64,000 nucleotides of DNA from Escherichia coli (GTDB taxonomy: Bacteria > Pseudomonadota > Gammaproteobacteria > Enterobacterales > Enterobacteriaceae): the NCBI RefSeq assembly GCF_041886205.1, contig NZ_CP169030.1; one strand, 5' to 3'. Numbering within the stretch: position 1 is the first letter of the stretch; each line of letters opens with the position of its first letter. Below, one piece after another: positions 28,741-62,543 of this stretch. Below the pieces are notes generated by a model. It was given only the letters and a program-made list of their open reading frames with translations. It made no database searches and was not told the origin of the DNA. A program made the translations under genes and the position numbers.

Positions 28741-30710
<1,970 letters not shown>

Positions 30711-40810: not shown

Positions 40811-41086
40811 CTACCTGTTTTCTCGTGTGTGCCACAGGCGCAATACATAAATAGTCTGGCCATTAAGTTCGTAACGGATTTCGTACTCGCCAGCAAAAAT
40901 CCGTCTGACCTCCCTGGGTTCAAACTGAAACAACTGTTCTCCCATACGTGGATGAGTTAACAGAATGACCGGTGCCTGTGTCAGGGATTGCACCGTTCTG
41001 GCGGCCGCAGGTTTACTGGCCAGCACCAGAAAATCATATAACCGCGCCAAATCAGAAAGCGCCTTACTGGTCCACTTCAGTTCCAT
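40811..41086 (-). CDS. ParE/RelE-family toxin
   Basis: 91 aa; C-terminal YVLRLWHTRE typical of ParE/RelE fold. Confidence 0.7.
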   Translation of the reverse strand: MELKWTSKALSDLARLYDFLVLASKPAAARTVQSLTQAPVILLTHPRMGEQLFQFEPREVRRIFAGEYEIRYELNGQTIYVLRLWHTRENR

Positions 41087-41370
41087 CAGCGTGGCACCGG
41101 TAACGGATTGTCAGTACTGAGGCTGTCCGCCCAGGCCTGTACAGCCTGATGGTCGATAACCTGTCCGGATGTCACATCGTCCAGGGCTTCCAGCGTCAGG
41201 CGATTACGCTCCTCCTCCTGGGCAAGCCATGCAGAAAGCGCCTGTTTGATAACCCAGCCCCGGGAGCGTTCCAGCCTGGCGGCCATCTGGTCGACTTTAT
41301 CAGCCATAGGTAATGGCACATGCGCGGTAATGACTTTTGTTGCTTGTGCACTATTGTTTTTCATTTGCAT
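41086..41370 (-). CDS. ribbon-helix-helix antitoxin (ParD/CopG-like)
   Basis: 94 aa; overlaps toxin start by 1 nt. Confidence 0.65.
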   Translation of the reverse strand: MQMKNNSAQATKVITAHVPLPMADKVDQMAARLERSRGWVIKQALSAWLAQEEERNRLTLEALDDVTSGQVIDHQAVQAWADSLSTDNPLPVPR

Positions 41371-41466
41371 ATCCGATTAGTTGTTAATCATATTTAATCA
41401 TAGTGATTACATTCAGACCGAACAAGGCAAATAATGCGCATCTGCGCATGTAAGGCAGCATACGGA

Positions 41467-41520
41467 GGTTACATGTAACACAGGTGTAAAACCGCCAAAG
41501 CCCGGCGTAAGCCGGTACGG
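41467..41520. repeat. 54-bp GC-rich element with internal palindrome CCGGC..GCCGG, copy 1
   Basis: GGTTACATGT...GTAAAACCGCC(A/G)AAGCCCGGCGTAAGCCGGTACGG; second copy at 63652-63705. Confidence 0.6.
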
Positions 41521-41565
41521 TCGTCCGAATATCACCAGTCCCACTCCGGCCCTGCGAGGCCATGT

Positions 41566-41603
41566 GGGGGGAACCGCAGAATTCGGAAAAAATCGTACGC
41601 TAA
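41566..41603 (+). repeat. 38-bp terminal inverted repeat (mcp end) GGGGGAACCGCAGAATTCGGAAAAAATCGTACGCTAAG
   Basis: Read directly. Confidence 0.85.
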
Positions 41604-41755
41604 GCTAACGGTGTTCTCGTGACAGCTCTTTGACTAGGCTTTCTAAGGCCATTCTGATAGCCCTGACTTCCTGAAAAGCCATGGCTAAAATTTGTGCGGC
41701 TAAAAGGGATAACCGATGGTAAAGTAAGTTATCCCTGTCGAGATACTGAAAAGCG

Positions 41756-43333
41756 TTATCCTCGTTTTTCCCAAAACTGTTTTGCCAGTTCGCTCAGAGC
41801 GCTAGTTAACTGAGCGACAGATTTCGCACTTTGCAAATTATTCTGCCCGGTCTGTACATTGGTATCAGCAGCATCGCGTATATTGATAATACTGCGGTTT
41901 ATGTCTTCACTTACTGCTCCCTGCTGCTCGACCGCAGTCGCTATTTGCGCGTTCATGTCGGTAATTTCGTTAACGCGTTGGCCAATTCCATCAAGAGCTG
42001 TAGCTGCTTCCTCTGCGTGAGCTACACTCGTGTGCGCTTGCCGACTACTTTGCTCCATGACTGTAACAGCGGATTGCGCTCGCTCTTGTAGAGCGCTGAT
42101 CATGCTTTGAATATCCGTTGTCGATTGCTGTGTGCGAGCAGCAAGACTGCGAACCTCATCGGCGACAACAGCAAAACCACGCCCCTGCTCACCAGCACGC
42201 GCGGCCTCAATTGCTGCGTTGAGTGCCAACAAATTCGTTTGCTCGGCGATCCCTCGTATAACGTCAAGAACTTTTGATATCTCGTTACTTTGACCTTCAA
42301 GCTCATGAATAACCTGAGTGGCTTGCCTAATTTCACCTTCAAGGGCAGTGATTGACTGGCTTGTGTGGGCTACCAGACGCTGGCCAGATGCCGTCTCAGT
42401 GTCTGCTCTTCCGGCCGCATCTGCAGCATGCTGTGCATTGCTCGCAACCTCTTGAATGCTTGCCACCATTTGGTTTACTGCCGTTGCTATTTGATCTGTC
42501 TCTGCCTGCTGCTCAACTGTAAGTACATTGCTTGACTCAATATCCTTTAGTAGGCCTCGGGTGTGTTCGCTAAGCCGATTTGATGCATCACCTATGCGAC
42601 CTACTATGGCGCCTGTTTCAGCTTGCATCATTCGTAAAGCAAACTCTATTTGGCCAAACTCATCGGTGCGCCCAGTGTAGAGGGATTGACTTAATGGGTT
42701 ATTGGAAATATTCTTGGCTCTTTCAACCAGTCTTCCAAGAGGAGAGAGAATAGCCAAAACACTAACAGAGCTTAAGCTTCCTGACATTAAAGTGGCTAAC
42801 AATAAGCTGCTTATTGATGTATCAGTAAGCATGCCGGCAGCCATTGCGCTTGATATAATACTACCCCATATGAGCAAGAGTATTTTCACGGAAAAGCTAG
42901 CAGCCAATTTCGGCCTCGCGGCCTTCCCGCTTCTCAATTGAGCATATAATTTTTCCGCAGCCAAAACCTGCTCAGGTTCAGGCTTGGTCCTTACAGACTG
43001 GTATTCAACAATCGAACCATTCTTAGCTATTGGCGTTACATAAGCACTTACCCAATAGTGGTCGCCATTTTTACAGCGATTTTTTACTAGCCCCATCCAT
43101 GAGCGGCCAGATTTTAATGTACTCCACATATGCTCAAATGCAGCAGGCGGCATATCTGGGTGTCTTACGATGTTGTGAGGCTGGCCTAATAGTTCTTCCT
43201 CAGTGAAACCACTGATTTTAATGAAGTCAGGATTAACGTACGTGATATGGCTTTGAGGGGAGGTAGTCGAAAGAATATTGGCATCTTTTGGGAGTTCTAA
43301 GTTTCGACCCGTCACTGGTAAATTCTGGCGCAT
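41756..43333 (-). CDS. methyl-accepting chemotaxis protein with PAS domain (Tn1721 orfI-like)
   Basis: 525 aa; PAS-like N-terminus, transmembrane segments, MCP signalling domain. Confidence 0.8.
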
Positions 43334-43625
43334 AAGAACCTCAAGGGTTGGCTGTTTTATTTTATTGTTTTCGGCATTAAGCCCAATTTCTTGAGCGTTA
43401 CGATAAAGCTAGCATGGAAACGATAGGTGCAAGCAAGTTAAGGGTTGCATCGCGCATGTCAATCTAGGCTATACCCTAACTTGATGTCAGGCAGGGCCGC
43501 GCCGCTTCGTCAGAATAGAGTCTGCTTTCCCATTTTTTGACACATGCCCGCGAAGGTTATAGATTTCAGCCTGACAGAAATGGGCTTTGAGGCACAACGG
43601 AACAGAAAGTGCACTTAAGCCGCCT

Positions 43626-43650
43626 TGTCATTTTCAGAAGACGACTGCAC
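43626..43650 (+). repeat. Tn402 IRt (TGTCATTTTCAGAAGACGACTGCAC)
   Basis: Read directly. Confidence 0.85.
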
Positions 43651-43766
43651 CAGTTGATTGGGCGTAATGGCTGTTGTGCAGCCAGCTCCTGACAGTTCAA
43701 TATCAGAAGTGATCTGCACCAATCTCGACTATGCTCAATACTCGTGTGCACCAAAGCGAGGTGAGC

Positions 43767-45446
43767 ATGGCGACGGACACCCCACGGATTCCAGAACAAG
43801 GCGTGGCCACTCTGCCTGATGAGGCTTGGGAGCGTGCGCGCCGTCGTGCGGAGATCATCAGTCCGTTGGCGCAGTCGGAGACGGTCGGGCACGAAGCGGC
43901 CGATATGGCGGCTCAGGCGCTGGGCTTGTCTCGGCGCCAGGTATACGTTCTGATCCGGCGTGCCCGGCAAGGCAGCGGCCTCGTGACGGATCTGGTGCCC
44001 GGCCAGTCCGGTGGAGGTAAAGGTAAGGGGCGCTTGCCGGAACCGGTCGAGCGCGTCATCCACGAGCTACTGCAAAAGCGGTTCCTGACCAAGCAGAAGC
44101 GCAGCCTAGCGGCCTTTCACCGCGAAGTCACTCAGGTGTGCAAGGCTCAAAAACTGCGAGTGCCGGCGCGCAATACCGTGGCCTTACGGATCGCTAGCCT
44201 TGACCCGCGCAAGGTCATCCGCCGGCGGGAAGGCCAGGATGCCGCTCGTGACCTACAAGGTGTGGGCGGCGAGCCTCCTGCCGTGACCGCGCCGCTGGAG
44301 CAGGTGCAGATAGACCATACGGTCATCGACCTGATCGTGGTCGATGACCGCGACCGGCAACCTATTGGCCGCCCGTACCTGACCCTCGCCATCGACGTGT
44401 TCACCCGCTGCGTGCTCGGCATGGTCGTCACGCTGGAAGCGCCGTCTGCCGTTTCGGTTGGCCTGTGCCTCGTGCATGTCGCCTGCGACAAGCGCCCTTG
44501 GCTGGAAGGACTGAACGTGGAAATGGATTGGCAGATGAGCGGCAAGCCCTTGCTGCTCTACCTAGACAACGCGGCCGAGTTCAAGAGCGAGGCCCTGCGC
44601 CGGGGTTGCGAGCAGCATGGCATCCGGCTGGACTATCGCCCGCTGGGACAGCCGCACTATGGCGGCATCGTGGAACGGATCATCGGCACGGCGATGCAGA
44701 TGATTCACGACGAACTGCCGGGAACGACCTTCTCCAACCCTGACCAGCGCGGCGACTACGATTCCGAAAACAAGGCCGCCCTGACGCTGCGCGAGCTAGA
44801 GCGCTGGCTCACATTGGCGGTCGGCACCTACCACGGTTCGGTGCACAACGGCCTGCTCCAACCGCCGGCCGCGCGCTGGGCCGAGGCCGTGGCGCGTGTC
44901 GGCGTACCGGCCGTCGTCACACGCGCTACTTCGTTCCTGGTCGATTTTCTGCCGATCCTCCGGCGCACGCTGACCCGCACCGGCTTTGTCATCGACCACA
45001 TCCACTACTACGCCGATGCGCTCAAGCCGTGGATTGCGCGGCGTGAACGCTGGCCGTCCTTTCTGATCCGGCGCGATCCGCGCGACATCAGCCGTATCTG
45101 GGTCCTGGAACCGGAGGGACAGCATTACCTGGAAATTCCCTACCGTACCTTGTCGCATCCGGCTGTCACCCTCTGGGAACAACGGCAGGCGCTGGCGAAA
45201 CTGCGGCAGCAAGGGCGCGAACAGGTGGATGAGTCGGCGCTGTTCCGCATGATCGGCCAGATGCGTGAGATTGTGACCAGCGCGCAGAAGGCCACACGCA
45301 AGGCGCGGCGTGACGCGGATCGCCGCCAGCACCTCAAGACATCAGCTCGGCCGGACAAGCCCGTTCCGCCGGATACGGATATTGCCGACCCGCAGGCAGA
45401 CAACTTGCCACCCGCCAAACCGTTCGACCAGATTGAGGAGTGGTAG
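43767..45446 (+). CDS. tniA: TniA transposase (DDE)
   Basis: 559 aa starting MATDTPRIPEQG, as recalled for Tn402 TniA. Confidence 0.85.
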   Translation: MATDTPRIPEQGVATLPDEAWERARRRAEIISPLAQSETVGHEAADMAAQALGLSRRQVYVLIRRARQGSGLVTDLVPGQSGGGKGKGRLPEPVERVIHELLQKRFLTKQKRSLAAFHREVTQVCKAQKLRVPARNTVALRIASLDPRKVIRRREGQDAARDLQGVGGEPPAVTAPLEQVQIDHTVIDLIVVDDRDRQPIGRPYLTLAIDVFTRCVLGMVVTLEAPSAVSVGLCLVHVACDKRPWLEGLNVEMDWQMSGKPLLLYLDNAAEFKSEALRRGCEQHGIRLDYRPLGQPHYGGIVERIIGTAMQMIHDELPGTTFSNPDQRGDYDSENKAALTLRELERWLTLAVGTYHGSVHNGLLQPPAARWAEAVARVGVPAVVTRATSFLVDFLPILRRTLTRTGFVIDHIHYYADALKPWIARRERWPSFLIRRDPRDISRIWVLEPEGQHYLEIPYRTLSHPAVTLWEQRQALAKLRQQGREQVDESALFRMIGQMREIVTSAQKATRKARRDADRRQHLKTSARPDKPVPPDTDIADPQADNLPPAKPFDQIEEW

Positions 45447-46357
45447 CCGTGGACGAATATCCCATCATCGACCTGTCCCACCTGCTGCCGGCGGCCCAGG
45501 GCTTGGCCCGTCTTCCGGCGGACGAGCGCATCCAGCGCCTTCGCGCCGACCGCTGGATCGGCTATCCGCGCGCAGTCGAGGCGCTGAACCGGCTGGAAGC
45601 CCTTTATGCGTGGCCAAACAAGCAACGCATGCCCAACCTGCTGCTGGTTGGCCCGACCAACAATGGCAAGTCGATGATCGTCGAGAAGTTCCGCCGCACC
45701 CACCCGGCCAGCTCCGACGCCGACCAGGAGCACATCCCGGTGTTGGTCGTGCAGATGCCGTCCGAGCCGTCCGTGATCCGCTTCTACGTCGCGCTGCTCG
45801 CCGCGATGGGCGCGCCGCTGCGCCCACGCCCACGGTTGCCGGAAATGGAGCAACTGGCTCTGGCACTGCTGCGCAAGGTCGGCGTGCGCATGCTGGTGAT
45901 CGACGAGCTGCACAACGTGCTGGCCGGCAACAGCGTCAACCGCCGGGAATTCCTCAACCTGCTGCGCTTCCTCGGCAACGAACTGCGCATCCCGTTGGTT
46001 GGGGTAGGCACGCGCGACGCCTACCTAGCCATCCGCTCCGATGACCAGTTGGAAAATCGCTTCGAGCCGATGATGCTGCCGGTATGGGAGGCCAACGACG
46101 ATTGCTGCTCACTGCTGGCCAGCTTCGCCGCTTCGCTCCCGCTGCGCCGGCCTTCCCCAATTGCCACGCTGGACATGGCTCGCTACCTGCTCACACGCAG
46201 CGAGGGCACCATAGGGGAACTGGCGCACTTGCTGATGGCGGCGGCCATCGTCGCCGTGGAGAGCGGCGAGGAAGCGATCAACCATCGCACACTCAGCATG
46301 GCCGTTTACACCGGACCCAGCGAGCGGCGGCGGCAATTCGAGCGGGAACTGATGTGA
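45440..46357 (+). CDS. tniB: TniB ATP-binding protein
   Basis: Walker A GPTNNGKS; exact start codon uncertain. Confidence 0.8.
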   Translation: MVAVDEYPIIDLSHLLPAAQGLARLPADERIQRLRADRWIGYPRAVEALNRLEALYAWPNKQRMPNLLLVGPTNNGKSMIVEKFRRTHPASSDADQEHIPVLVVQMPSEPSVIRFYVALLAAMGAPLRPRPRLPEMEQLALALLRKVGVRMLVIDELHNVLAGNSVNRREFLNLLRFLGNELRIPLVGVGTRDAYLAIRSDDQLENRFEPMMLPVWEANDDCCSLLASFAASLPLRRPSPIATLDMARYLLTRSEGTIGELAHLLMAAAIVAVESGEEAINHRTLSMAVYTGPSERRRQFERELM

Positions 46358-47571
46358 AGCCTGCGCCGCGCTGGCCGCTGCATCCCGCCCCGAAAGAAGG
46401 CGAGGCGCTGTCCTCATGGCTCAACCGCGTGGCCCTTTGCTATCACATGGAGGAGCCCGACCTGCTGGAGCACGATCTTGGTCACGGCCAGGTCGATGAC
46501 CTGGACACCGCGCCACCACTCTCGCTGCTGGCGTTGCTTTCCCAGCGGAGCGGCATCGAGCTGGACCGGCTGCGCTGTATGAGTTTCGCCGGATGGGTGC
46601 CTTGGCTACTGGACAGCCTTGATGACCAGATTCCAGACGCCTTGGAAACCTATGCGTTTCAGCTCTCGGTGTTGCTGCCAAGACTCCGCCGTAAGACGCG
46701 ATCCATCACGAGCTGGCGTGCCTGGCTGCCCAGCCAGCCGATAAACCGCGCCTGTCCGCTCTGCCTGAGCGATCCGGAGAACCAAGCCGTACTGCTCGCG
46801 TGGAAGCTGCCCCTGATGCTGAGCTGCCCGCTGCATGGCTGCTGGCTGGAATCCTATTGGGGCGTGCCAGGGCGGTTTCTCGGCTGGGAGAACGCCGACG
46901 CCGAACCGCGCACCGCCAGCGACGCGATTGCGGCGATGGACCAGCGTACCTGGCAGGCACTGACAACCGGTCACGTGGAGCTGCCGCGCCGACGCATCCA
47001 CGCCGGATTGTGGTTTCGACTTCTTCGCACGCTGCTCGATGAGCTGAACACCCCGCTTTCCGCGTGCGGAACCTGCGCGGGGTATCCCCGCCAAGTCTGG
47101 GAAGGCTGCGGGCATCCGCTGCGTGCTGGGCAAAGTCTGTGGCGACCGTATGAAACCCTGAATCCGATAGTACGGTTACAGATGCTGGAGGCGGCGGCAA
47201 CGGCAATCAGCTTGATTGAGGTGAGGGACATCAGCCCGCCAGGCGAGCAGGCAAAGCTATTCTGGTCCGAGCCCCAAACCGGGTTCACCAGTGGCCTGCC
47301 GACGAAAGCGCCGAAGCCCGAGCCCATCAATCACTGGCAGCGTGCAGTCCAGGCCATCGACGAGGCCATCATTGAAGCGCGACACAACCCCGAGACGGCA
47401 CGCTCGCTGTTCGCGTTGGCTTCCTATGGTCGGCGCGATCCCGCTTCCTTGGAACGGTTGCGCGCCACCTTCGTGAAGGAAGGCATCCCGCCGGAATTTC
47501 TGTCACATTACCTGCCTGATGCACCCTTTGCATGTCTTAAACAAAATGACGGGTTAAGTGACAAATTTTGA
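46354..47571 (+). CDS. tniQ: TniQ
   Basis: 405 aa from GTG at 46354; ORF-track extension from 46084 judged spurious. Confidence 0.75.
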   Translation: MKPAPRWPLHPAPKEGEALSSWLNRVALCYHMEEPDLLEHDLGHGQVDDLDTAPPLSLLALLSQRSGIELDRLRCMSFAGWVPWLLDSLDDQIPDALETYAFQLSVLLPRLRRKTRSITSWRAWLPSQPINRACPLCLSDPENQAVLLAWKLPLMLSCPLHGCWLESYWGVPGRFLGWENADAEPRTASDAIAAMDQRTWQALTTGHVELPRRRIHAGLWFRLLRTLLDELNTPLSACGTCAGYPRQVWEGCGHPLRAGQSLWRPYETLNPIVRLQMLEAAATAISLIEVRDISPPGEQAKLFWSEPQTGFTSGLPTKAPKPEPINHWQRAVQAIDEAIIEARHNPETARSLFALASYGRRDPASLERLRATFVKEGIPPEFLSHYLPDAPFACLKQNDGLSDKF

Positions 47572-47617
47572 CGGATAGAGCTTTCCGGCTCACACTGTCA
47601 CATAATCGAACGTATAC

Positions 47618-48256
47618 GTGACGGGTGAAAAGGTGCTGATCGGCTACATGCGGGTATCGAAGGCGGACGGATCCCAGTCCACCAATTTGCAACGCGATGC
47701 GCTCATCGCCGCTGGTGTGAGCCTTGCGCACCTTTACGAGGATCTGGCCTCGGGCAGGCGCGATGATCGCCCAGGGTTGGCTGCTTGCCTGAAGGCGCTT
47801 CGTGAAGGGGACACGCTGATCGTGTGGAAGCTCGATCGGCTTGGCCGTGATCTGCGCCACCTGATCAACACCGTGCACGACCTAACTGCGCGTAGCGTGG
47901 GCCTGAAGGTCCTGACCGGTCACGGTGCGGCGGTCGACACGACGACTGCCGCCGGCAAGCTTGTGTTCGGTATTTTTGCCGCGCTGGCCGAGTTCGAGCG
48001 TGAGTTGATTTCCGAGCGAACAGTCGCTGGACTTATCTCGGCGCGCGCTCGCGGCAGGAAAGGGGGGCGCCCCTTCAAGATGACCGCCGCCAAGCTACGC
48101 CTGGCGATGGCCAGCATGGGGCAACCGGAAACCAAGGTGGGCGATCTCTGCGAAGAACTCGGGATTACCCGGCAGACGCTCTACCGGCACGTGTCGCCCA
48201 AGGGCGAACTGCGGCCAGACGGCGTAAAGCTGCTCTCCCTCGGTTCAGCCGCATAA
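47618..48256 (+). CDS. tniR: TniR (TniC) serine resolvase
   Basis: 212 aa; N-terminal LIGYMRVSKADGSQ serine-recombinase motif. Confidence 0.8.
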   Translation: MTGEKVLIGYMRVSKADGSQSTNLQRDALIAAGVSLAHLYEDLASGRRDDRPGLAACLKALREGDTLIVWKLDRLGRDLRHLINTVHDLTARSVGLKVLTGHGAAVDTTTAAGKLVFGIFAALAEFERELISERTVAGLISARARGRKGGRPFKMTAAKLRLAMASMGQPETKVGDLCEELGITRQTLYRHVSPKGELRPDGVKLLSLGSAA

Positions 48257-48460
48257 ATGGAGGCGACCTGGAACGGGGCGCTGTTCAGTGCGGCAACGAT
48301 CCGATTACCGGTGTCGACCCAGAGCAGCCGTAGAGCTTTTGGGAAAGCTGTCGTTCAACGTTTGACGTGAGGGGCCGCCGTAGCGGCGAAGCCGCGAAGG
48401 GAACCCGCAAGCGCAGCTTGTGGGCGGTCCCTCTCGACGGAATGGTTAGATGCGACCGTT

Positions 48461-48793
48461 TTAGTGAACACTTGCCTTAGATAGCAAGTTGAGCACAGCA
48501 ACGCCGCTGATAATGAAGCCGACACCAACAAATCCCCACATATCTAGTTTTTGACCATGCAAAACCCATGCAATCGCAGTGACCAAGACGATCCCGAGGC
48601 CCGACCAAACTGCGTAGGCGATTCCAACAGGAATCGATTTGAGTGTCAGCGACAGGAAATAAAAAGCAGCAGCGTATCCCGCTACGACGATAAAAGACGG
48701 TACTAACCTAGTAAAGCCCTCACTAGACTTGAGCGCAGAGGTTGCAATGACCTCAAAAATAATGGCCGTAGCCAGAAATAACCAATTTTTCAA
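48461..48793 (-). CDS. qac: SMR-family quaternary-ammonium efflux protein on a gene cassette (qacE-related, full length)
   Basis: 110 aa (TTG start) immediately downstream of attI1; intact SMR C-terminus ...[10 protein letters not shown] rather than the qacEdelta1 tail. Confidence 0.75.
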
Positions 48794-48895
48794 AATATTT
48801 CTCCATGGAGTTCCGCGAAGAAATTTTAGGTTCGATTTAAGAAAAAAAACAGTCTTGTTGCTGGCCGAAATTTGTGCGCACAGCAAAGCATCTAA

Positions 48896-48960
48896 CTTTG
48901 TTTTAGGGCGACTGCCCTGCTGCGTAACATCGTTGCTGCTCCATAACATCAAACATCGAC
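48896..48960 (-). promoter_or_regulatory. attI1 integron recombination site (copy 1, intact)
   Basis: GCCCTAAAACAAAG|TTA junction read on minus strand at 48893-48909. Confidence 0.65.
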
Positions 48961-49031
48961 CCACGGCGTAACGCGCTTGCTGCTTGGATGCCCGAGGCAT
49001 AGACTGTACAAAAAAACAGTCATAACAAGCC

Positions 49032-50045
49032 ATGAAAACCGCCACTGCGCCGTTACCACCGCTGCGTTCGGTCAAGGTTCTGGACCAGTTGCGTGAGCGC
49101 ATACGCTACTTGCATTACAGTTTACGAACCGAACAGGCTTATGTCCACTGGGTTCGTGCCTTCATCCGTTTCCACGGTGTGCGTCACCCGGCAACCTTGG
49201 GCAGCAGCGAAGTCGAGGCATTTCTGTCCTGGCTGGCGAACGAGCGCAAGGTTTCGGTCTCCACGCATCGTCAGGCATTGGCGGCCTTGCTGTTCTTCTA
49301 CGGCAAGGTGCTGTGCACGGATCTGCCCTGGCTTCAGGAGATCGGAAGACCTCGGCCGTCGCGGCGCTTGCCGGTGGTGCTGACCCCGGATGAAGTGGTT
49401 CGCATCCTCGGTTTTCTGGAAGGCGAGCATCGTTTGTTCGCCCAGCTTCTGTATGGAACGGGCATGCGGATCAGTGAGGGTTTGCAACTGCGGGTCAAGG
49501 ATCTGGATTTCGATCACGGCACGATCATCGTGCGGGAGGGCAAGGGCTCCAAGGATCGGGCCTTGATGTTACCCGAGAGCTTGGCACCCAGCCTGCGCGA
49601 GCAGCTGTCGCGTGCACGGGCATGGTGGCTGAAGGACCAGGCCGAGGGCCGCAGCGGCGTTGCGCTTCCCGACGCCCTTGAGCGGAAGTATCCGCGCGCC
49701 GGGCATTCCTGGCCGTGGTTCTGGGTTTTTGCGCAGCACACGCATTCGACCGATCCACGGAGCGGTGTCGTGCGTCGCCATCACATGTATGACCAGACCT
49801 TTCAGCGCGCCTTCAAACGTGCCGTAGAACAAGCAGGCATCACGAAGCCCGCCACACCGCACACCCTCCGCCACTCGTTCGCGACGGCCTTGCTCCGCAG
49901 CGGTTACGACATTCGAACCGTGCAGGATCTGCTCGGCCATTCCGACGTCTCTACGACGATGATTTACACGCATGTGCTGAAAGTTGGCGGTGCCGGAGTG
50001 CGCTCACCGCTTGATGCGCTGCCGCCCCTCACTAGTGAGAGGTAG
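49032..50045 (+). CDS. intI1: class 1 integron integrase IntI1 (copy 1)
   Basis: 337 aa; matches recalled IntI1 sequence. Confidence 0.95.
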
Positions 50046-50222
50046 GGCAGCGCAAGTCAATCCTGGCGGATTCACTACCCCTGCGCGAAGGCCATCGGTG
50101 CCGCATCGAACGGCCGGTTGCGGAAAGTCCTCCCTGCGTCCGCTGATGGCCGGCAGCAGCCCGTCGTTGCCTGATGGATCCAACCCCTCCGCTGCTATAG
50201 TGCAGTCGGCTTCTGACGTTCA

Positions 50223-50247
50223 GTGCAGCCGTCTTCTGAAAACGACA
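50223..50247 (+). repeat. Tn402 IRi (internal copy)
   Basis: GTGCAGCCGTCTTCTGAAAACGACA read directly. Confidence 0.85.
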
Positions 50248-50329
50248 TTTGAACCGGGAACCTTCCCTTTTTGGCTAGGCGTGAAACAATGGTCATTTTC
50301 CCTATACCCAAAATGACCAGGAGGCCCGC

Positions 50330-50407
50330 ATGAAAGTCGCACGCATCTACCTGCGCGTGAGCACGGAGGAACAAGACCTAAGCCGGCAGGATGCCATCGT
50401 GGAGAGC
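50330..50407 (+). pseudogene. 5' fragment of a serine resolvase gene (MKVARIYLRVSTEEQDLSRQDAIVES), truncated by the 88-bp repeat
   Basis: 26 codons with serine-recombinase N-terminal motif, then abrupt junction. Confidence 0.5.
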
Positions 50408-50495
50408 TTAAATAAGACCGTCCCGTAAATTTCAGCCGAATCCGACAAAAAGGCGTGAAGATTTCCTTTAAATAGAGAGACCGAAGGTCATCCTT
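50408..50495 (+). repeat. 88-bp direct repeat flanking the tet(M) segment, copy 1
   Basis: TTAAATAAGACCGTCCCGTAAATTTCAGCCGAATCCGACAAAAAGGCGTGAAGATTTCCTTTAAATAGAGAGACCGAAGGTCATCCTT; identical at 52999-53086. Confidence 0.85.
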
Positions 50496-50968
50496 TTCCT
50501 AAAAAAGGGGGGGGCCATGGTTCCAAGATGTAAAATCGAGGGCTAATTCAGGCTATACTTGAACTATCCTTAATGGAATCTTTAGCCAGCGGTATCAACG
50601 AAGCAAGAAACATCGAAGACTAATTAAAAGAATCCATACATAACGGAAAGAGCCGATAAAATGAGATTGTATTAATCTCATTTTATCGGCTCTGCGTCTT
50701 TGCGTCTGGCTCTGTAATCGCAGTTACTTTGAACTGCTTTATTTCAATTAAATTTTCTTGTCTGCATTTCGGACAATAGAGGGGGAATTTTTTTAATTCA
50801 GTATCTTCCCTTATCTTTAATCGTGTTTTATTTCCACATACAGGACACAATATCCACTTGTAGTTTATAATAACTATCTCCTCCTTTACACTTTAATTCA
50901 AATCTTTATTAAAAAATATTTCATCTTATTTAACAAGAAACCATATTTATATAACAACATAAAATACA

Positions 50969-52888
50969 CTAAGTTATTTTATTGAACATATATCGTACTT
51001 TATCTATCCGACTATTTGGACGACGGGGCTGGCAAACAGGTTCACCGGTAGTAACATGGTACCCTTTTAACTCTGTTAAACAAACACTACGTCCATTTGT
51101 AAAGAAAGTTAAATCACTACGATATTCTTGAATACACCGAGCAGGGATTTCTCCACTAAGAATGACCTCATTATTTTTCAATTGAGTGTCTACGATGTTC
51201 GCACAATATTTAGGAGCATCGTTGTATGCTCGTGAAAGATATTCCTGTGGCGCATAAATTTTAAAACTAAGATATGGCTCTAACAATTCTGTTCCAGCTT
51301 TTTTTAAGACTTGTTCCAATACAATAGGAGCAAGCATCCGAAAATCTGCTGGGGTACTAACAGGGCTATAGTATAAGCCATACTTAAAACAGATTTTACA
51401 GTCCGTCACATTCCAACCATACAATCCTTGTTCACAGCCATAGCGTATCCCTTCCATAACTGCATTTTGAAATGATTGATTTAAGTATCCAAGAGAAACC
51501 GAGCTCTCATACTGCATTCCACTTCCCAACGGAAGCGGTGATACAGATAAACCAATGGAAGCCCAGAAAGGATTTGGCGGCACTTCGATGTGAATGGTAT
51601 ATTCTGCATTTTTTAACGGTCTCTCCATATAAATGACTGTAGGCTCTTTTAGTTCTATCTCCACATGATACTTTTCTTGCAACAGTGCACTAATCACTTC
51701 CATTTGTACTTTCCCTAAGAAAGAAAGTATAATTTCATGTGTCGTAGAATCCACGTAATATCGTAGAAGCGGATCACTATCTGAGATTTCCAAAAGGGCA
51801 TCAAGCAACATTTCTCTCTGTTCAGGTTTACTCGGTTCAACAGTTGTTTGTAGTAGAGGGTGCGGATTTTCAATCTTTTTTCTCTGTGGCAATAGTTTTG
51901 TATCTCCAAGAACACTATTTAACTTCAAAAACTCATTTTGCAAAATAACAATTTCCCCGGAATAAGCCTTATCGATTTTACATAATTCACCATTTATTGA
52001 AGTATACATTTCTGTAATTTTTATTTTTTCCTTTTCCGATATTCTAACCGAATCTCGCAAATGCAGTACGCCACTATAAAGACGTATATATGCAAGACGT
52101 TGTCTTTTTTTTGTATATTCAATTTTGAAAACATTTCCGCAAAGTTCAGACTGACCTCGATGTGTTGATGAATAAAATTTATTCGTAATCACTTCTATAA
52201 GGTTATCAATCCCTATATTGTTTTTTGCACTTCCATGATAAAGAGGGAACAGAGAACAATTCTGAAATCTTATGCTTTCCTCTTGTTCGAGTTCCAATGC
52301 TTCTAATGATTTACCGGACATATATTTCTCTAAAAGGTCATCGTTTCCCTCTATTACCGTATCCCATTGTTCAGATTCGGTAAAGTTCGTCACACACATA
52401 TTAGGATACAGTTCTACCTTCTGTTTGATTACAATTTCGGCAGAAAGTTTCTCTTTAATATCCTGATAAACCGTTGATAAATCAATTCCATTTTGGTCAA
52501 TCTTATTGATAAAAAAGATTGTGGGAATCCCCATTTTCCTAAGTGCATGAAATAATATACGAGTTTGTGCTTGTACGCCATCTTTTGCAGAAATCAGTAG
52601 AATTGCCCCATCTAAAACTGATAATGAACGATATACTTCTGCTAAGAAATCCATATGTCCTGGCGTGTCTATGATGTTCACCTTCGTATTTTCCCACTGA
52701 AAAGAGGTTATTCCTGTCTGAATTGTAATTCCTCTCTGACGTTCTAAAAGCGTATTATCCGTCCTCGTTGTACCTTTGTCCACGCTTCCTAATTCTGTAA
52801 TCGCTCCACTGTTATATAATAAGCTTTCTGTTAAGGTAGTTTTTCCCGCATCAACATGAGCTAAAACTCCAATATTAATAATTTTCAT
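50969..52888 (-). CDS. tet(M): Tet(M) ribosomal-protection tetracycline resistance protein
   Basis: 639 aa from [39 protein letters not shown]...; translational GTPase fold; very close to recalled Tet(M). Confidence 0.95.
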
Positions 52889-52903
52889 GTGATTTTCCTC
52901 CAT

Positions 52904-52990
52904 TCAAAAGCCCAAAAGGGCATAAAAATCCCAGTGATAAATACTCTTATCACTGGGATTTTTATGCATAACCATAGGCATACAAAGCAT
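52904..52990 (-). CDS. tet(M) leader peptide (Tn916 orf12-like attenuation leader)
   Basis: 28 codons MLCMPMVMHKNPSDKSIYHWDFYALLGF directly upstream of tet(M). Confidence 0.7.
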   Translation of the reverse strand: MLCMPMVMHKNPSDKSIYHWDFYALLGF

Positions 52991-52998
52991 ACAGATAT

Positions 52999-53086
52999 TT
53001 AAATAAGACCGTCCCGTAAATTTCAGCCGAATCCGACAAAAAGGCGTGAAGATTTCCTTTAAATAGAGAGACCGAAGGTCATCCTT
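52999..53086 (+). repeat. 88-bp direct repeat flanking the tet(M) segment, copy 2
   Basis: Identical to 50408-50495. Confidence 0.85.
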
Positions 53087-53131
53087 GAAGAAGGAGTCCT
53101 CGGTGAGATTCAGAATGCCGAACACCGTCAC
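53087..53131 (-). pseudogene. sul1: sul1 5' fragment (codons 2-16: VTVFGILNLTEDSFF) fused to truncated attI1
   Basis: Minus-strand GTGACGGTGTTCGGCATTCTGAATCTCACCGAGGACTCCTTCTTC matches recalled sul1 start; joined at ...CAGCAGG|GTGACGG. Confidence 0.7.
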
Positions 53132-53247
53132 CCTGCTGCGTAACATCGTTGCTGCTCCATAACATCAAACATCGACCCACGGCGTAACGCGCTTGCTGCT
53201 TGGATGCCCGAGGCATAGACTGTACAAAAAAACAGTCATAACAAGCC

Positions 53248-54261
53248 ATGAAAACCGCCACTGCGCCGTTACCACCGCTGCGTTCGGTCAAGGTTCTGGA
53301 CCAGTTGCGTGAGCGCATACGCTACTTGCATTACAGCTTACGAACCGAACAGGCTTATGTCCACTGGGTTCGTGCCTTCATCCGTTTCCACGGTGTGCGT
53401 CACCCGGCAACCTTGGGCAGCAGCGAAGTCGAGGCATTTCTGTCCTGGCTGGCGAACGAGCGCAAGGTTTCGGTCTCCACGCATCGTCAGGCATTGGCGG
53501 CCTTGCTGTTCTTCTACGGCAAGGTGCTGTGCACGGATCTGCCCTGGCTTCAGGAGATCGGAAGACCTCGGCCGTCGCGGCGCTTGCCGGTGGTGCTGAC
53601 CCCGGATGAAGTGGTTCGCATCCTCGGTTTTCTGGAAGGCGAGCATCGTTTGTTCGCCCAGCTTCTGTATGGAACGGGCATGCGGATCAGTGAGGGTTTG
53701 CAACTGCGGGTCAAGGATCTGGATTTCGATCACGGCACGATCATCGTGCGGGAGGGCAAGGGCTCCAAGGATCGGGCCTTGATGTTACCCGAGAGCTTGG
53801 CACCCAGCCTGCGCGAGCAGCTGTCGCGTGCACGGGCATGGTGGCTGAAGGACCAGGCCGAGGGCCGCAGCGGCGTTGCGCTTCCCGACGCCCTTGAGCG
53901 GAAGTATCCGCGCGCCGGGCATTCCTGGCCGTGGTTCTGGGTTTTTGCGCAGCACACGCATTCGACCGATCCACGGAGCGGTGTCGTGCGTCGCCATCAC
54001 ATGTATGACCAGACCTTTCAGCGCGCCTTCAAACGTGCCGTAGAACAAGCAGGCATCACGAAGCCCGCCACACCGCACACCCTCCGCCACTCGTTCGCGA
54101 CGGCCTTGCTCCGCAGCGGTTACGACATTCGAACCGTGCAGGATCTGCTCGGCCATTCCGACGTCTCTACGACGATGATTTACACGCATGTGCTGAAAGT
54201 TGGCGGTGCCGGAGTGCGCTCACCGCTTGATGCGCTGCCGCCCCTCACTAGTGAGAGGTAG
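53248..54261 (+). CDS. intI1: class 1 integron integrase IntI1 (copy 2)
   Basis: Identical 337-aa translation to copy 1; at least one silent nucleotide difference (49121 T vs 53337 C). Confidence 0.95.
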
Positions 54262-54438
54262 GGCAGCGCAAGTCAATCCTGGCGGATTCACTACCCCTGC
54301 GCGAAGGCCATCGGTGCCGCATCGAACGGCCGGTTGCGGAAAGTCCTCCCTGCGTCCGCTGATGGCCGGCAGCAGCCCGTCGTTGCCTGATGGATCCAAC
54401 CCCTCCGCTGCTATAGTGCAGTCGGCTTCTGACGTTCA

Positions 54439-54463
54439 GTGCAGCCGTCTTCTGAAAACGACA
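54439..54463 (+). repeat. Tn402 IRi (outer copy) followed by target duplication CGCCT
   Basis: Read directly. Confidence 0.85.
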
Positions 54464-54485
54464 CGCCTTCAACCAAGGAGACATC

Positions 54486-55046
54486 GTGCAGGGGCACCGC
54501 ATCGGCTACGTCCGGGTCAGCAGCTTTGACCAGAACCCGGAACGCCAGCTGGAACAAACCCAGGTGAGCAAGGTGTTCACCGACAAGGCATCGGGCAAGG
54601 ACACCCAGCGCCCCCAGCTCGAAGCGCTGCTGAGCTTCGTCCGCGAAGGCGATACAGTGGTGGTGCACAGCATGGATCGGCTGGCCCGCAACCTCGATGA
54701 CCTGCGTCGCTTGGTACAGAAGCTGACTCAGCGCGGCGTGCGCATCGAGTTCCTGAAGGAGGGCCTGGTGTTCACTGGCGAGGACTCGCCGATGGCCAAC
54801 CTGATGCTGTCGGTGATGGGGGCCTTCGCTGAGTTCGAGCGCGCCCTGATCCGCGAGCGGCAGCGTGAGGGCATCGCCTTGGCCAAGCAGCGTGGCGCGT
54901 ACCGGGGCCGCAAGAAAGCCCTGTCCGATGAGCAGGCTGCTACCCTGCGGCAGCGAGCGACGGCCGGCGAGCCCAAGGCGCAGCTTGCCCGCGAGTTCAA
55001 CATCAGCCGGGAAACCCTCTACCAGTACCTCCGCACGGACGACTGA
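54486..55046 (+). CDS. tnpR: Tn3-family serine resolvase TnpR
   Basis: 186 aa MQGHRIGYVRVSSFDQNPERQ...; IRi lies only 22 bp upstream, i.e. within the expected res region. Confidence 0.9.
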   Translation: MQGHRIGYVRVSSFDQNPERQLEQTQVSKVFTDKASGKDTQRPQLEALLSFVREGDTVVVHSMDRLARNLDDLRRLVQKLTQRGVRIEFLKEGLVFTGEDSPMANLMLSVMGAFAEFERALIRERQREGIALAKQRGAYRGRKKALSDEQAATLRQRATAGEPKAQLAREFNISRETLYQYLRTDD

Positions 55047-55049
55047 CAC

Positions 55050-58016
55050 ATGCCGCGTCGCTTGATCCTCTCGGCCACGGAGCGGGACACCCTGCTTGCG
55101 CTGCCGGAAAGCCAGGATGACCTGATCCGCTACTACACCTTCAACGACTCCGACCTGTCGCTGATCCGCCAGCGACGCGGCGACGCCAACCGCCTCGGCT
55201 TCGCCGTGCAGCTCTGCCTGCTGCGCTACCCCGGTTACGCGCTGGGAACCGACAGCGAGCTGCCCGAGCCGGTCATCCTGTGGGTGGCGAAGCAAGTCCA
55301 GGCCGAGCCGGCGAGCTGGGCAAAGTACGGCGAGCGCGACGTGACCCGTCGCGAGCATGCCCAGGAACTGCGCACCTACCTGCAACTGGCCCCGTTCGGC
55401 CTGTCCGACTTCCGCGCCCTGGTGCGCGAGCTAACCGAGCTGGCCCAGCAGACCGACAAAGGCTTGCTGCTGGCCGGTCAGGCCCTGGAGAGCCTACGGC
55501 AGAAACGACGCATCCTGCCGGCGCTGAGCGTGATTGACCGGGCCTGCTCGGAAGCCATTGCGCGAGCCAATCGGCGGGTCTACCGCGCCCTGGTCGAACC
55601 ACTCACGGACTCGCATCGGGCCAAGCTGGACGAGCTGTTGAAGCTCAAGGCCGGCAGCAGCATCACCTGGTTGACCTGGCTGCGCCAGGCACCGCTGAAA
55701 CCCAACTCTCGGCACATGCTGGAACACATCGAGCGGCTGAAGACATTTCAGTTGGTGGACTTGCCCGAAGGCCTGGGCCGGCACATCCACCAGAACCGCC
55801 TGCTCAAGCTGGCCCGCGAGGGTGGGCAGATGACGCCCAAAGACCTCGGTAAGTTCGAGCCGCAGCGCCGCTACGCGACCCTGGCCGCCGTGGTGCTGGA
55901 GAGCACCGCGACCGTGATCGATGAGCTGGTCGATCTGCATGACCGCATCCTGGTCAAGCTGTTCAGCGGCGCGAAGCACAAGCATCAGCAGCAGTTCCAG
56001 AAGCAGGGCAAGGCGATCAACGACAAGGTGCGCCTGTACTCCAGGATCGGCCAGGCGCTGCTGGAAGCGAAGGAAAGCGGCAGCGACCCCTATGCCGCCA
56101 TCGAGGCGGTGATTCCCTGGGACGAGTTCACCGAGAGCGTCAGCGAGGCCGAGCTGCTGGCCCGGCCGGAAGGCTTCGACCACCTGCACCTGGTCGGCGA
56201 GAACTTCGCCACCCTGCGCCGTTACACGCCGGCCTTGCTGGAGGTGCTGGAACTGCGCGCCGCGCCGGCCGCGCAAGGCGTGCTGGCAGCCGTGCAGACC
56301 CTGCGTGAGATGAACGCCGACAACCTGCGCAAGGTGCCGGCCGATGCACCCACGGCCTTCATCAAGCCGCGCTGGAAGCCGCTGGTGATCACCCCGGAAG
56401 GCCTCGACCGGAAATTCTACGAAATCTGCGCCCTGTCCGAGCTGAAGAACGCCCTGCGCTCCGGCGACATCTGGGTCAAGGGCTCGCGGCAGTTCCGCGA
56501 CTTCGACGACTACCTGCTGCCGGCCGAGAAGTTCGCCGCACTCAAGCGCGAGCAGGCCCTGCCCCTGGCGATCAACCCGAACAGCGACCAGTACCTGGAA
56601 GAGCGTTTGCAGCTGCTGGACGAGCAGTTGGCCACCGTCACCCGCCTGGCCAAGGACAACGAGCTGCCCGATGCCATCCTCACCGAGTCAGGGCTGAAAA
56701 TCACCCCGCTGGATGCGGCGGTGCCGGATCGGGCGCAGGCGCTGATCGACCAAACCAGCCAGTTACTGCCGCGCATCAAGATCACCGAACTGCTGATGGA
56801 CGTGGACGACTGGACGGGCTTCAGCCGCCACTTCACCCACTTGAAGGACGGGGCCGAGGCCAAAGACAGGACGTTGCTGCTGTCCGCAATCCTCGGTGAT
56901 GCGATCAACCTCGGGCTGACCAAGATGGCCGAGTCGAGCCCCGGCCTGACCTACGCCAAGCTGTCCTGGCTGCAAGCCTGGCACATCCGCGACGAAACCT
57001 ATTCGGCGGCCTTGGCCGAGCTGGTCAACCACCAGTATCGCCACGCCTTTGCCGCCCACTGGGGCGACGGCACGACCTCATCCTCCGATGGCCAGCGCTT
57101 CCGCGCGGGTGGCCGGGGCGAGAGCACCGGGCACGTCAACCCGAAGTACGGTAGCGAGCCGGGACGGCTGTTCTATACCCATATCTCCGACCAGTACGCG
57201 CCGTTCAGCACCCGCGTGGTGAATGTCGGCGTCCGCGATTCCACCTATGTGCTCGACGGCCTGCTGTACCACGAGTCCGACCTGCGGATCGAGGAGCACT
57301 ACACCGACACGGCCGGCTTCACCGATCACGTCTTTGCCCTGATGCACCTGCTAGGCTTCCGCTTCGCGCCGCGCATCCGCGACCTCGGCGAAACCAAGCT
57401 GTACGTGCCGCAGGGCGTGCAAGCCTACCCGACGTTGCGCCCGCTGATCGGCGGCACCCTGAACATCAAGCACGTGCGTGCCCACTGGGACGACATCCTG
57501 CGCCTGGCCAGCTCGATCAAGCAGGGCACCGTCACCGCCTCGCTGATGCTGCGCAAGCTCGGCAGCTACCCGCGCCAGAACGGACTGGCCGTGGCCCTGC
57601 GCGAGCTGGGCCGGATCGAGCGCACGCTGTTCATCCTGGACTGGCTGCAAAGTGTTGAACTGCGCCGCCGCGTGCATGCCGGCCTGAACAAAGGTGAGGC
57701 GCGCAACTCGCTGGCCAGGGCGGTGTTCTTCAACCGCCTTGGGGAAATCAGGGATCGGAGCTTCGAGCAGCAGCGCTACCGGGCCAGCGGCCTCAACCTG
57801 GTGACGGCGGCTATCGTGCTGTGGAACACGGTGTACCTGGAACGCGCCACCCAGGGGTTGGTCGAGGCCGGCAAGCCGGTGGACGGCGAGCTGCTGCAAT
57901 TCCTGTCGCCGCTGGGCTGGGAGCACATCAACCTAACCGGCGATTACGTCTGGCGGCAGAGCCGCAGACTGGAAGACGGGAAGTTTCGGCCCTTACGGAT
58001 GCCCGGAAAACCTTAG
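55050..58016 (+). CDS. tnpA: Tn3-family transposase TnpA
   Basis: 988 aa; reads toward the terminal inverted repeat. Confidence 0.9.
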
Positions 58017-58049
58017 CGTACGATTTTTTCCGAATTCTGCGGGCTCCCC
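58012..58049 (-). repeat. 38-bp terminal inverted repeat (tnpA end) GGGGAGCCCGCAGAATTCGGAAAAAATCGTACGCTAAG
   Basis: Read directly as reverse complement; overlaps tnpA stop. Confidence 0.85.
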
Positions 58050-58567
58050 TTGTTTGTACGATTCGATATCGATACTGCGTAATGGCCGGTACTTCCCTGT
58101 ACCCAGCTTAAGATTATTACGCCAGACATCATCCCCATTAAGATTGATATGCTCCCAGCCCAACGGCGAAAGGTGAGTGCAGTTGGTCATTAATCGGGAG
58201 CTTTTTTCGTTTCAGGGACTCAATGGCTCTTTCTATGTATACCGTGTTCCATAATTTTTCACTCCGTTGAAAACGGAGTACGTGGCAATCGTATCAGTGA
58301 TACAGTTGAGGCAATTGACACGAATACCCTTTCCGGTATTGATGGCATCAGTTGAAGAGCATGTTATTCTCTTGAGCTATTTGTGCCACACAGGCGCGGG
58401 GGGCGTTTTTTACCACGGGGACTTCGGGCATAAAAACAAGGGGCCGCAAACACGGCCCTTAATTCAGATCTAACCGGGTACGCTATCTGTTGCCCTGGAA
58501 AATTGATCTGACAACTCAGTAAAGATCAATACGGTTCTGACGAGCAGCTTACCTGCCTGTTTGCGTT

Positions 58568-59863: not shown

Positions 59864-59917
59864 TGAAGTTGCTCCACTGTCTTATCAGAATTATGTATAG
59901 AGGTAAGAGTTTGCGGG

Positions 59918-62447: not shown

Positions 62448-62543
62448 CGTCTACTCCATTACCATTTAACTATTTGTTAAATTTGTAATTGAAATGTATA
62501 CGTATGATTGTATGGGCGCTATAACGAATAGCTAAAGATGGGT

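Follow-up and report, generated by a model that had tools for sequence, protein, structure and literature searches.

Tn1721 and Tn1722 are Tn3-family transposons, their transposase being called 'TnAs1 family' by PGAP, and the element studied here has in common with them the 38-bp terminal repeats and the genes orfI/mcp, tnpR and tnpA. Its cargo resembles the class 1 integron-transposons of the Tn402/Tn5053 family ('res hunters'), sharing the 25-bp IRi and IRt ends, the tniA-tniB-tniQ-tniR genes and intI1/attI1, as well as a qac cassette, a 5-bp duplication (CGCCT) and a position just upstream of a resolvase gene. Besides these similarities, there are differences: unlike Tn1721/Tn1722, the element has a Tn402-like integron of 10.8 kb, with tet(M), inserted upstream of tnpR; this copy also lacks the 5-bp duplication and the tet(A) module; and unlike Tn402, the intI1-IRi end of its integron is duplicated (1,333 bp) around a Gram-positive-type tet(M) segment.

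As described by He et al. 2016 (PMC5142620), Tn3-family transposons can be accompanied by adjacent deletions (171 bp and 1,259 bp), each removing one target duplication, which were explained by an intramolecular cis pathway. In Tn1331-delta::IS26 of pAAC154-type plasmids (PMC5142620), a short deletion extends exactly from the transposon end and one 5-bp duplication is lost, as in the present locus; that study had intermediate plasmids, whereas none was found here.

The window, meaning the whole 64-kb stretch of DNA analysed, belongs to an F-type plasmid of Escherichia coli, and its element is of an ordinary, well-known resistance transposon type, composed of a Tn1722/Tn1721 backbone, an integron and tet(M). 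The finding is itself ordinary, the probable route of deletion being a documented one.

The element, its ends and its cargo

The element spans 41567-58049 (16,483 bp) and is bounded by 38-bp Tn1721-type terminal inverted repeats. Its features, with the two immediate flanks, are as follows:

41562-41566, left 5-bp flank, ATGTG
41567-41604, plus strand, IRL, left 38-bp terminal inverted repeat of Tn1721/Tn1722
41756-43333, minus strand, orfI/mcp of Tn1722, PAS-domain methyl-accepting chemotaxis protein gene
43626-54463, plus strand, Tn402-like class 1 integron/transposon, 10,838 bp, inserted 22 bp upstream of tnpR
43767-48256, plus strand, tni module: tniA 43767-45446, tniB 45449-46357, tniQ 46354-47571, tniR (serine recombinase) 47633-48256
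48464-48793, minus strand, qacG2 gene cassette (NCBIfam NF000278, 232 bits, cutoff 220)
48871-48942, minus strand, attI1 region of the first integron copy (Rfam RF02912, 72.1 bits)
48915-50247, plus strand, 1,333-bp direct repeat, copy 1: partial attI1, intI1 49032-50045, IRi 50223-50247
50248-53130, minus strand, tet(M) segment: tet(M) 50969-52888, a leader peptide and a small KTR-domain ORF
53131-54463, plus strand, 1,333-bp repeat, copy 2: truncated attI1, intI1 53248-54261, IRi 54439-54463
54486-55046, plus strand, tnpR, Tn1722 serine resolvase, 186 aa
55050-58016, plus strand, tnpA, Tn3-family transposase, 988 aa (NCBIfam NF033527, 1289 bits, cutoff 500)
58012-58049, minus strand, IRR, right 38-bp terminal inverted repeat
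58050-58054, right 5-bp flank, TTGTT

Both inverted repeats announced by the first-pass annotation are present, with arms of 38 nt at 41567-41604 and 58012-58049 that are 92% complementary (35/38), and they are the only two Tn1721-type repeats in the 64-kb window in a search allowing up to 13 mismatches. The right arm shows 0 mismatches to the IRR of Tn1721; the left arm differs at 3 positions. Both arms have the same sequence as the ends of copies that bear target duplications. A run of six consecutive G (41566-41571) leaves the left boundary ambiguous by one or two bases; since all three duplication-bearing copies compared have the common start GGGGGAACC, IRL begins at 41567, and the earlier start at 41566 was one base early. 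Consequently, the left flank previously read as CATGT is ATGTG; the right flank TTGTT was correct and the mismatch between the flanks is real, the 5-bp target duplication (ATGTG versus TTGTT) being absent from this copy.

With the integron subtracted, the backbone measures 5,640 bp and, aligned over its full length (5,640/5,640), differs at 1 position from the Tn1722 portion of the canonical Tn1721 in NZ_CP045999.1; at 99.98% identity, a chance resemblance is no issue. The description 'Tn1722-like' thus holds for the backbone and understates a 16.5-kb composite that includes a Tn402-like integron and tet(M); no specific name for such a Tn1721::Tn402-tet(M) element was found in the literature. 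The tnpR product gave serine-recombinase matches under the equivalog cutoffs of NCBIfam and is named 'recombinase family protein' by PGAP.

Regarding the integron, its borders are the 25-bp IRt (43626-43650) and IRi (54439-54463), flanked by its own 5-bp duplication CGCCT at 43621-43625 and 54464-54468, and its insertion 22 bp upstream of tnpR may disturb res. It possesses the components of a class 1 integron, namely intI1 (IntI1: NCBIfam NF011946, 799 bits), attI1 and at least one cassette; the attI1 region was the only Rfam match over 36000-64000, none being obtained for the repA4 repeats described below. The tniB and tniQ products had no NCBIfam match at 1e-10 and take their names from identical DNA that is annotated. 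Tet(M) scored 1515 bits against a cutoff of 1420 (NCBIfam NF012155), and its segment contains a pair of perfect 88-bp direct repeats (50408-50495 and 52999-53086).

Neighbouring DNA and the empty site

The plasmid DNA on both sides of the element contains the following:

40811-41370, minus strand, RelE/ParE-family toxin (40811-41086) and ribbon-helix-helix antitoxin (41086-41370), a pair like yacB/yacA of F-type plasmids
41446-41563, truncated remnant of a repA4 region (copy 1), the distal ~120 nt being absent here
58050-58255, minus strand, frameshifted tnpA 3'-end remnant of a different Tn3-family transposon, from tblastn, the empty-site sequences and a PGAP pseudogene
58472-58556, IS66-family (ISCro1-like) end fragment
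58568-63470, minus strand, tcu locus: tcuC 58568-59863, tcuB 59918-61057, tcuA 61044-62447, tcuR 62544-63470
63631-63870, intact repA4-region paralogue (copy 2), adjoining the resident IncFII/FIC-type ori and repA

The toxin and antitoxin ORFs of the left flank had no NCBIfam match and take their names from annotated DNA of 99.99% identity in NZ_AP024116.1. A 54-bp repeat had been noted beside the left end, recurring beyond tcuR; the repeat is real and larger than that. It is a truncated repA4 paralogue, where 41446-41563 matches 63631-63749 over ~120 nt at 78%, a match that extends to 240 nt at 82% in plasmids without the transposon. A partial RepA4 pseudogene is annotated by PGAP at the place of copy 1 in NZ_OZ547260.1.

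On the right, the proximity to tcuC also stands, with its stop codon at 58568, 518 bp from the end of the element; the DNA that abuts the transposon is the Tn3-family remnant and not the tcu locus itself. By tblastn, this remnant matches the C-terminus of Tn1722 TnpA in two segments, one of 32 aa at 72% and one of 25 aa at 48%. A search of the window for another terminal repeat of the decayed transposon, which could have bracketed tcu, found none. TcuC, TcuB and TcuA score over the curated NCBIfam cutoffs, tcuR is named from the PGAP annotation of identical DNA, and the literature yielded nothing specific on plasmid-borne tcu.

The first-pass annotation had proposed a comparison with related replicons lacking the transposon, and five such plasmids (CP088670.1, NZ_CP103720.1, NZ_CP109930.1, CP077380.1 and NZ_CP026930.2) possess the empty site, in the order GAGGCCATGTG (ending in CCATGTG), then 212 bp, then TTGTTTGTACG. 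Many further records showed the pattern of 51% coverage that an empty site should give. The 212 bp are made up of the latter half of the repA4 remnant and a complete 38-bp terminal repeat of the decayed Tn3-family transposon, which lies with 4 bp directly to the left of the remnant retained here, both being deleted in the window. As this complete Tn3-type repeat is contiguous with its own tnpA remnant, the empty site represents the ancestral state. Relative to it, the window is missing 212 bp and the gap starts exactly at one transposon terminus. Thus, as read from these alignments, the window combines an insertion with a 212-bp deletion of plasmid DNA ending exactly at the transposon end, and the target duplication is missing because the adjoining DNA was lost.

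The first-pass annotation had considered recombination between copies, an adjacent deletion or an inversion, and it is the adjacent deletion that this comparison supports. Inversion or relocation of the 212 bp is not supported, as they are absent elsewhere in the window and in the whole of the sister plasmid JML285_P2, save for the repA4 paralogue (89.6%). Likewise, a second Tn1721 end was found neither in the window, at up to 13 mismatches, nor in the remainder of JML285_P2, so that a second copy with reciprocal flanks, which had also been proposed for a search, is present in neither. Meanwhile, pC4101, the best backbone relative of window 14000-38500, carries different cargo at the place of the transposon and is uninformative for this question. 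The window itself is a mosaic, and recombination is frequent in F plasmids.

Origin of the unlike flanks

The history that we consider likely, on balance, is a Tn1721-family insertion, an intramolecular (cis) deletion of 212 bp, and then the loss of the tet(A) module from a full Tn1721 ancestor. A replicative Tn1721-family transposon, whose Tn1722 core (orfI/mcp, a presumed res, tnpR, tnpA) would already have borne the Tn402-like integron with qacG2 and tet(M), would have landed between the repA4 remnant and the decayed Tn3-family remnant, upstream of the tcu operon. A normal insertion would first have made a 5-bp duplication; the transposase would then have used a nearby target on the same strand for a replicative transposition within the molecule, by the cis pathway, excising the intervening DNA and one original duplication copy as a circle, later lost. 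The transposon would remain between one old and one new flank, after either an original insertion at ATGTG with the right end then attacking TTGTT, or one at TTGTT with the left end then attacking ATGTG. The locus has what such a cis product should have: a deletion running exactly from the terminus, one duplication copy lost and a single transposon copy left.

An intermediate would be a copy at either site with its duplication intact, having IRR followed by ATGTGGCCTGTC or GGCTGTTGTT followed by IRL, the two parental junction sequences being CTGCGGGCTCCCC joined to ATGTGGCCTGTCAGCG and CACGCTAAGGCTGTTGTT joined to GGGGGAACCGCAG. The search covered 72,556 plasmids, 20,395 E. coli records, metagenome contigs and species-representative genomes. 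When PLSDB and all complete E. coli genomes were searched with a chimeric junction query, no place rose above the 51% coverage of the empty site, and a validated degenerate exact pattern for both possible junctions had 0 matches among the metagenome contigs and likewise 0 among the species-representative genomes. As no intermediate occurred in these collections, the mechanism of deletion is deduced from its product. Two partial matches of the chimeric query, NZ_CP157112.1 and NZ_CP080140.1, were rejected, having unrelated Tn1721 ends elsewhere in the repA4 region.

The same product would arise if two copies in the same orientation, one at ATGTG and one at TTGTT, in sister plasmids or a dimer, underwent homologous or TnpR/res recombination, giving hybrid flanks and removing the 212 bp. 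This we regard as unlikely, though worth keeping in view: Tn1721 repeatedly hits the yacA-repA4-ori region, as seen in NZ_CP045999.1 (a canonical Tn1721 with the duplication AACAA, ~140 bp to the left and in the same orientation) and in the nearby ends of NZ_CP157112.1 and NZ_CP080140.1, which makes a two-copy history somewhat less far-fetched; F plasmids also recombine frequently and the window is a mosaic. Against it, the element would have had to insert twice within 212 bp and then recombine, compared to one insertion and one transposase event, and an intact-duplication occupant of either site was absent from every collection searched. Moreover, the transposition immunity of the Tn3 family disfavours two copies per molecule.

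It is improbable that a normal insertion was followed by a loss of the 212 bp independent of the transposase, through illegitimate recombination or slippage during replication. Plasmid junk DNA often undergoes small deletions and this region consists of non-coding remnants; however, whichever side is considered, the deletion stops precisely at the last base of an intact 38-bp terminal repeat, as a joint made by the transposase should, and this would otherwise be a coincidence. Moreover, the longest direct repeat visible at the two breakpoints is the ambiguous G(G) of the left junction. Finally, a simple insertion with duplication, misread owing to the G run that blurs the left boundary by one or two bases, is practically untenable, as no register (CATGT, ATGTG or TGTGG) matches TTGTT and the empty site has 212 bp between the junctions, which already refutes it.

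The deletion end point lies 4 bp inside the inner edge of the foreign Tn3-family repeat, which is identical to that of Tn1721 at 26/38 positions, and in F plasmids the yacA-repA4-ori region has Tn1721 ends at no fewer than four different positions. That this region, or heterologous Tn3-type ends, may attract the Tn1721 transposase, creating a local hotspot that erodes transposon remnants beside plasmid replicons, is an idea we hold to be very doubtful.

The tet(A) module and the element in other plasmids

The same 16,483-bp element (3-5 mismatches) is present with perfect 5-bp duplications in pN55972-1 (TTTTA) and pFSIS12032448 (ACGAA), from which it follows that its ends are functional and its boundaries fixed, and that the window copy is an exception owing to its own history and not to the element. 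Both junctions of the window recur in JML285_P2 and pVPS18EC0802-1, but with the full Tn1721 form, in which a tet(A) module of 5,488 bp lies between 1,790-bp direct repeats that are 100% identical, as in Tn1721. The window equals these two plasmids minus exactly one repeat unit, and the parts distinguishing Tn1721 proper (tetR-tet(A)-pecM, the repeated tnpA 3' end and a third 38-bp repeat) are absent from it. No PLSDB record or complete E. coli genome showed the Tn1722 form adjoining the tcu flank. As the module sits between perfect 1,790-bp repeats, the Tn1722 form is most simply a secondary loss, and the window's form is probably secondary to the full Tn1721 form; the 5,488-bp module would have been removed by homologous recombination between the repeats.

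For this second step, the order could be reversed, the 16,483-bp Tn1722 form being original and JML285_P2 and pVPS18EC0802-1 having gained tet(A) through a tet circle or gene conversion from a canonical Tn1721. We judge this unlikely, though worth keeping in view: the 16,483-bp form is mobile as one unit in other plasmids, where it has duplications, and recombination across the 1,790-bp repeat is reversible, so that integration of a tet circle would yield the structure of JML285_P2. However, loss takes one molecule and no second element, and two of the three known members of the lineage carry the module.

The practical value of these observations is limited; they add a further step to the history of one lineage of resistance plasmids, in which a Tn1721 derivative (tet(M), qacG2 and, in relatives, tet(A)) resides beside the replicon and tcu operon of bovine- and human-associated F plasmids. 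For annotation, the absent duplication is here the sign of 212 bp lost from the flank, and does not mark the element as dead or chimeric. The tet(A) module would come and go via the 1,790-bp repeats, and the 16.5-kb unit continues to move into other plasmids of E. coli and Salmonella, making duplications there.

Ends and make-up of the element

The transposon is bounded by two 38-bp inverted repeats, both already noted in the first-pass annotation; they occupy 41567-41604 and 58012-58049, are the only such pair in the window and match at 35 of 38 positions. The right arm is identical to the Tn1721 IRR sequence, whereas three positions deviate in the left arm. As the left repeat starts with GGGGGAACC in three other copies of the transposon, all having target duplications, the left boundary is located at 41567 and not at 41566, as initially placed. 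The left 5-bp flank is ATGTG (41562-41566) instead of the CATGT first read, and the right flank, TTGTT, was correctly identified; the two are indeed unlike, as no register gives a match. Regarding its surroundings, tcuC lies on the right with its end 518 bp from the element, consistent with the earlier estimate of about 500 bp.

The element has 16,483 bp and the following components:

41756-43333, minus strand: PAS/methyl-accepting chemotaxis gene, in the outer part
between the chemotaxis gene and tnpR: Tn402-like class 1 integron-transposon of 10,838 bp
43626-43650 and 54439-54463: IRt and IRi, the 25-bp repeats bounding the Tn402-like element
54486-55046: tnpR, in the outer part
55050-58016: Tn3-family transposase gene (988 aa; NF033527 at 1289 bits)

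Without the integron and one copy of its duplication, the backbone comprises 5,640 bp and is one base off the Tn1722 portion of the canonical Tn1721 in NZ_CP045999.1, so the term "Tn1722-like" used at first is right for the backbone, but it omits two thirds of the element. The Tn402-like element has a 5-bp duplication of its own, CGCCT, on both sides (43621-43625 and 54464-54468), and contains tniA, tniB, tniQ, tniR, a qacG2 cassette, attI1 (Rfam RF02912) and intI1. Its insertion lies 22 bp upstream of the tnpR start codon, probably inside the Tn1722 res region, as expected for a "res hunter".

The attI1'-intI1-IRi end is present as two 1,333-bp direct repeats (48915-50247 and 53131-54463) with 1 mismatch between them, enclosing a 2.9-kb tet(M) segment (50248-53130; Tet(M) NF012155, 1515 bits). 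This layout (48915-54463) looks like a circle with tet(M) and an integron end, integrated by homologous recombination. Enterococcus plasmids give matches that are probably due to the tet(M) part, which suggests a Gram-positive source for this segment. In addition, the whole attI1 is kept only in the first integron copy, and the tet(M) segment has perfect 88-bp direct repeats of its own (50408-50495 and 52999-53086).

The empty site and the missing 212 bp

Each flank (58050 onward; up to 41566) was matched separately in many F-type plasmids, and the empty site was read directly in five of them (CP088670.1, NZ_CP103720.1, NZ_CP109930.1, CP077380.1 and NZ_CP026930.2). All five have 212 bp joining the flanks, absent from the window, in the order ...GAGGCCATGTG, 212 bp, TTGTTTGTACGATTCG..., and tcuCBA is found immediately to the right in three of them, as in the window. 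The 212 bp are composed of the second half of a repA4-region remnant, a spacer of about 50 bp and a complete 38-bp Tn3-type terminal repeat, GGGGTCCGCCTGGAAAAAGGAAAATATCCCACGCTAAG (26/38 identical to that of Tn1721), then 4 more bp. This repeat runs straight into a frameshifted tnpA 3' end, and the right flank of the element in the window (58050-58255, minus strand) is a remnant of the same frameshifted tnpA, as seen by tblastn. RefSeq pseudogenes at the same place in NZ_OZ547260.1 are a partial RepA4 and a partial Tn3-family transposase.

Since an intact repeat is joined to its own gene remnant in the unoccupied version, the unoccupied site is the ancestral state and the window shows an insertion plus a 212-bp deletion. 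Thus, the observation of a transposon without a matching target duplication is confirmed, together with the adjacent deletion that had been offered as one of its causes.

The decayed Tn3-family transposon, formed by GGGGTCCGCCTGGAAAAAGGAAAATATCCCACGCTAAG and about 205 bp of the tnpA 3' end (the 212 bp being 2789-3000 in the compared plasmid L005), is widespread beside the repA4 remnant in E. coli and Klebsiella IncF plasmids, and its nearest relatives are 76-83% identical.

Routes to the deletion

The deletion stops precisely where an intact terminal repeat has its outermost base, the hallmark of intramolecular replicative transposition along the "cis" route. In this process, both transposon ends would attack a nearby target within the same molecule, the DNA between transposon and target would leave as a circle with one copy of the original duplication, and the transposon would stay behind between one old and one new flank. 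Either ATGTG would be the original site, the right end having moved to TTGTT, or TTGTT would be the original site, the left end having moved to ATGTG; the product is identical in either case, so that the two histories are indistinguishable. As described by He et al. 2016 (PMC5142620), a Tn3-family element deleted 171 bp and 1,259 bp of neighbouring DNA by the same cis route, each deletion taking one duplication copy.

The structure would look no different if two copies had inserted 212 bp from each other and then recombined, but this scenario is less economical than cis transposition. It gains some plausibility from the repeated landing of Tn1721 in this plasmid region: NZ_CP045999.1 has a canonical Tn1721, oriented the same way and flanked by the duplication AACAA, about 140 bp to the left of this site, and two other plasmids have Tn1721 ends close by. 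A chimeric query for the parental junctions, run on 72,556 plasmids and on 20,395 records of E. coli, gave nothing above the coverage expected of the empty site, and a degenerate exact pattern for both junctions, validated before use, had 0 matches in metagenome contigs and 0 in species-representative genomes.

The inversion also proposed at first is not supported, as the 212 bp recur neither in the window nor in the whole of the sister plasmid JML285_P2, the one exception being the repA4 paralogue at 63755-63869 (89.6%), and JML285_P2 has no Tn1721 end outside the locus. A further 38-bp repeat of Tn1721 type is likewise absent from the 64-kb window with up to 13 mismatches allowed, so the anticipated second copy with reciprocal flanks was found in neither. 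The 212 bp at the empty site rule out a simple insertion whose duplication was misread.

Tn1721 ends occur at differing positions of the yacA-repA4-ori region of F plasmids (20060-31187 in NZ_CP045999.1; 1691 and 1561-1580 in the compared plasmids L009 and L010), which may be favoured as a target or just permissive. Every component and step is well-described mobile-element biology.

Related plasmids and the host replicon

JML285_P2 (NZ_AP024116.1) and pVPS18EC0802-1 (CP063715.1) are 99.99% identical to the window over 37631-64000, with both junctions in common. The left junction is shared only with JML285_P2 among 5,426 complete E. coli genomes, and with pVPS18EC0802-1 in PLSDB. After the first right-hand repeat, both plasmids have an extra 5,488 bp with tetR(A), tet(A), an EamA/pecM gene, a truncated tnpA and a third 38-bp repeat, which gives them the full Tn1721 form. 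Direct repeats of 1,790 bp with 100% identity enclose the tet(A) module, and removing exactly one repeat unit gives the window. In the simplest reading, the module would have been lost through homologous recombination, giving the Tn1722 form; the reverse, gain of an excised tet circle by the Tn1722 form, is mechanistically possible. These 1,790-bp repeats are also the basis of the classical recA-dependent tet amplification in Tn1721. The exact Tn1722 form beside tcu is in no record of PLSDB or the complete E. coli genomes.

The 16,483-bp element is mobile, being also present with 3-5 mismatches in E. coli pN55972-1, with TTTTA at both ends, and in Salmonella Typhimurium pFSIS12032448, with ACGAA at both ends. 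Given these perfect 5-bp duplications, the missing duplication reflects the history of this copy and not the element itself.

The "54-bp repeat" reported to recur beyond tcuR is real but longer: 41446-41563 matches 63631-63749 over about 120 nt at 78%, and the homology covers 240 nt at 82% in the empty-site plasmids. It is the repA4 region, located downstream of the origin in IncFII-type replicons. The second copy (63631-63870) adjoins the resident ori and repA; the first, which adjoins a yacB/yacA-like toxin-antitoxin pair and has been cut by the decayed Tn3-family transposon, is what is left of a second IncFII-type replicon, indicating an old plasmid fusion or recombination. The transposon, the Tn3 remnant and the tcu operon all lie between these two paralogues, which are 78-82% identical. 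As the order yacBA, repA4 remnant, Tn3 remnant, IS66 fragment, tcuCBAR, repA4, ori, repA is also found without Tn1721, it is older than the transposon and not caused by it. The tcu locus is untouched, and TcuC, TcuB and TcuA are intact, with scores above curated cutoffs.

Positions 1-37630 have no counterpart in JML285_P2 and best match bovine F plasmids such as pC4101, whose content includes an autotransporter, an EAL-domain protein and several IS; thus, the host replicon is a mosaic, its breakpoint lying near 37631. An 85-bp IS66-family (ISCro1-like) end fragment (58472-58556) occupies part of the gap between the Tn3 remnant and tcuC and is 81% similar to 19663-19747 in inverted orientation.
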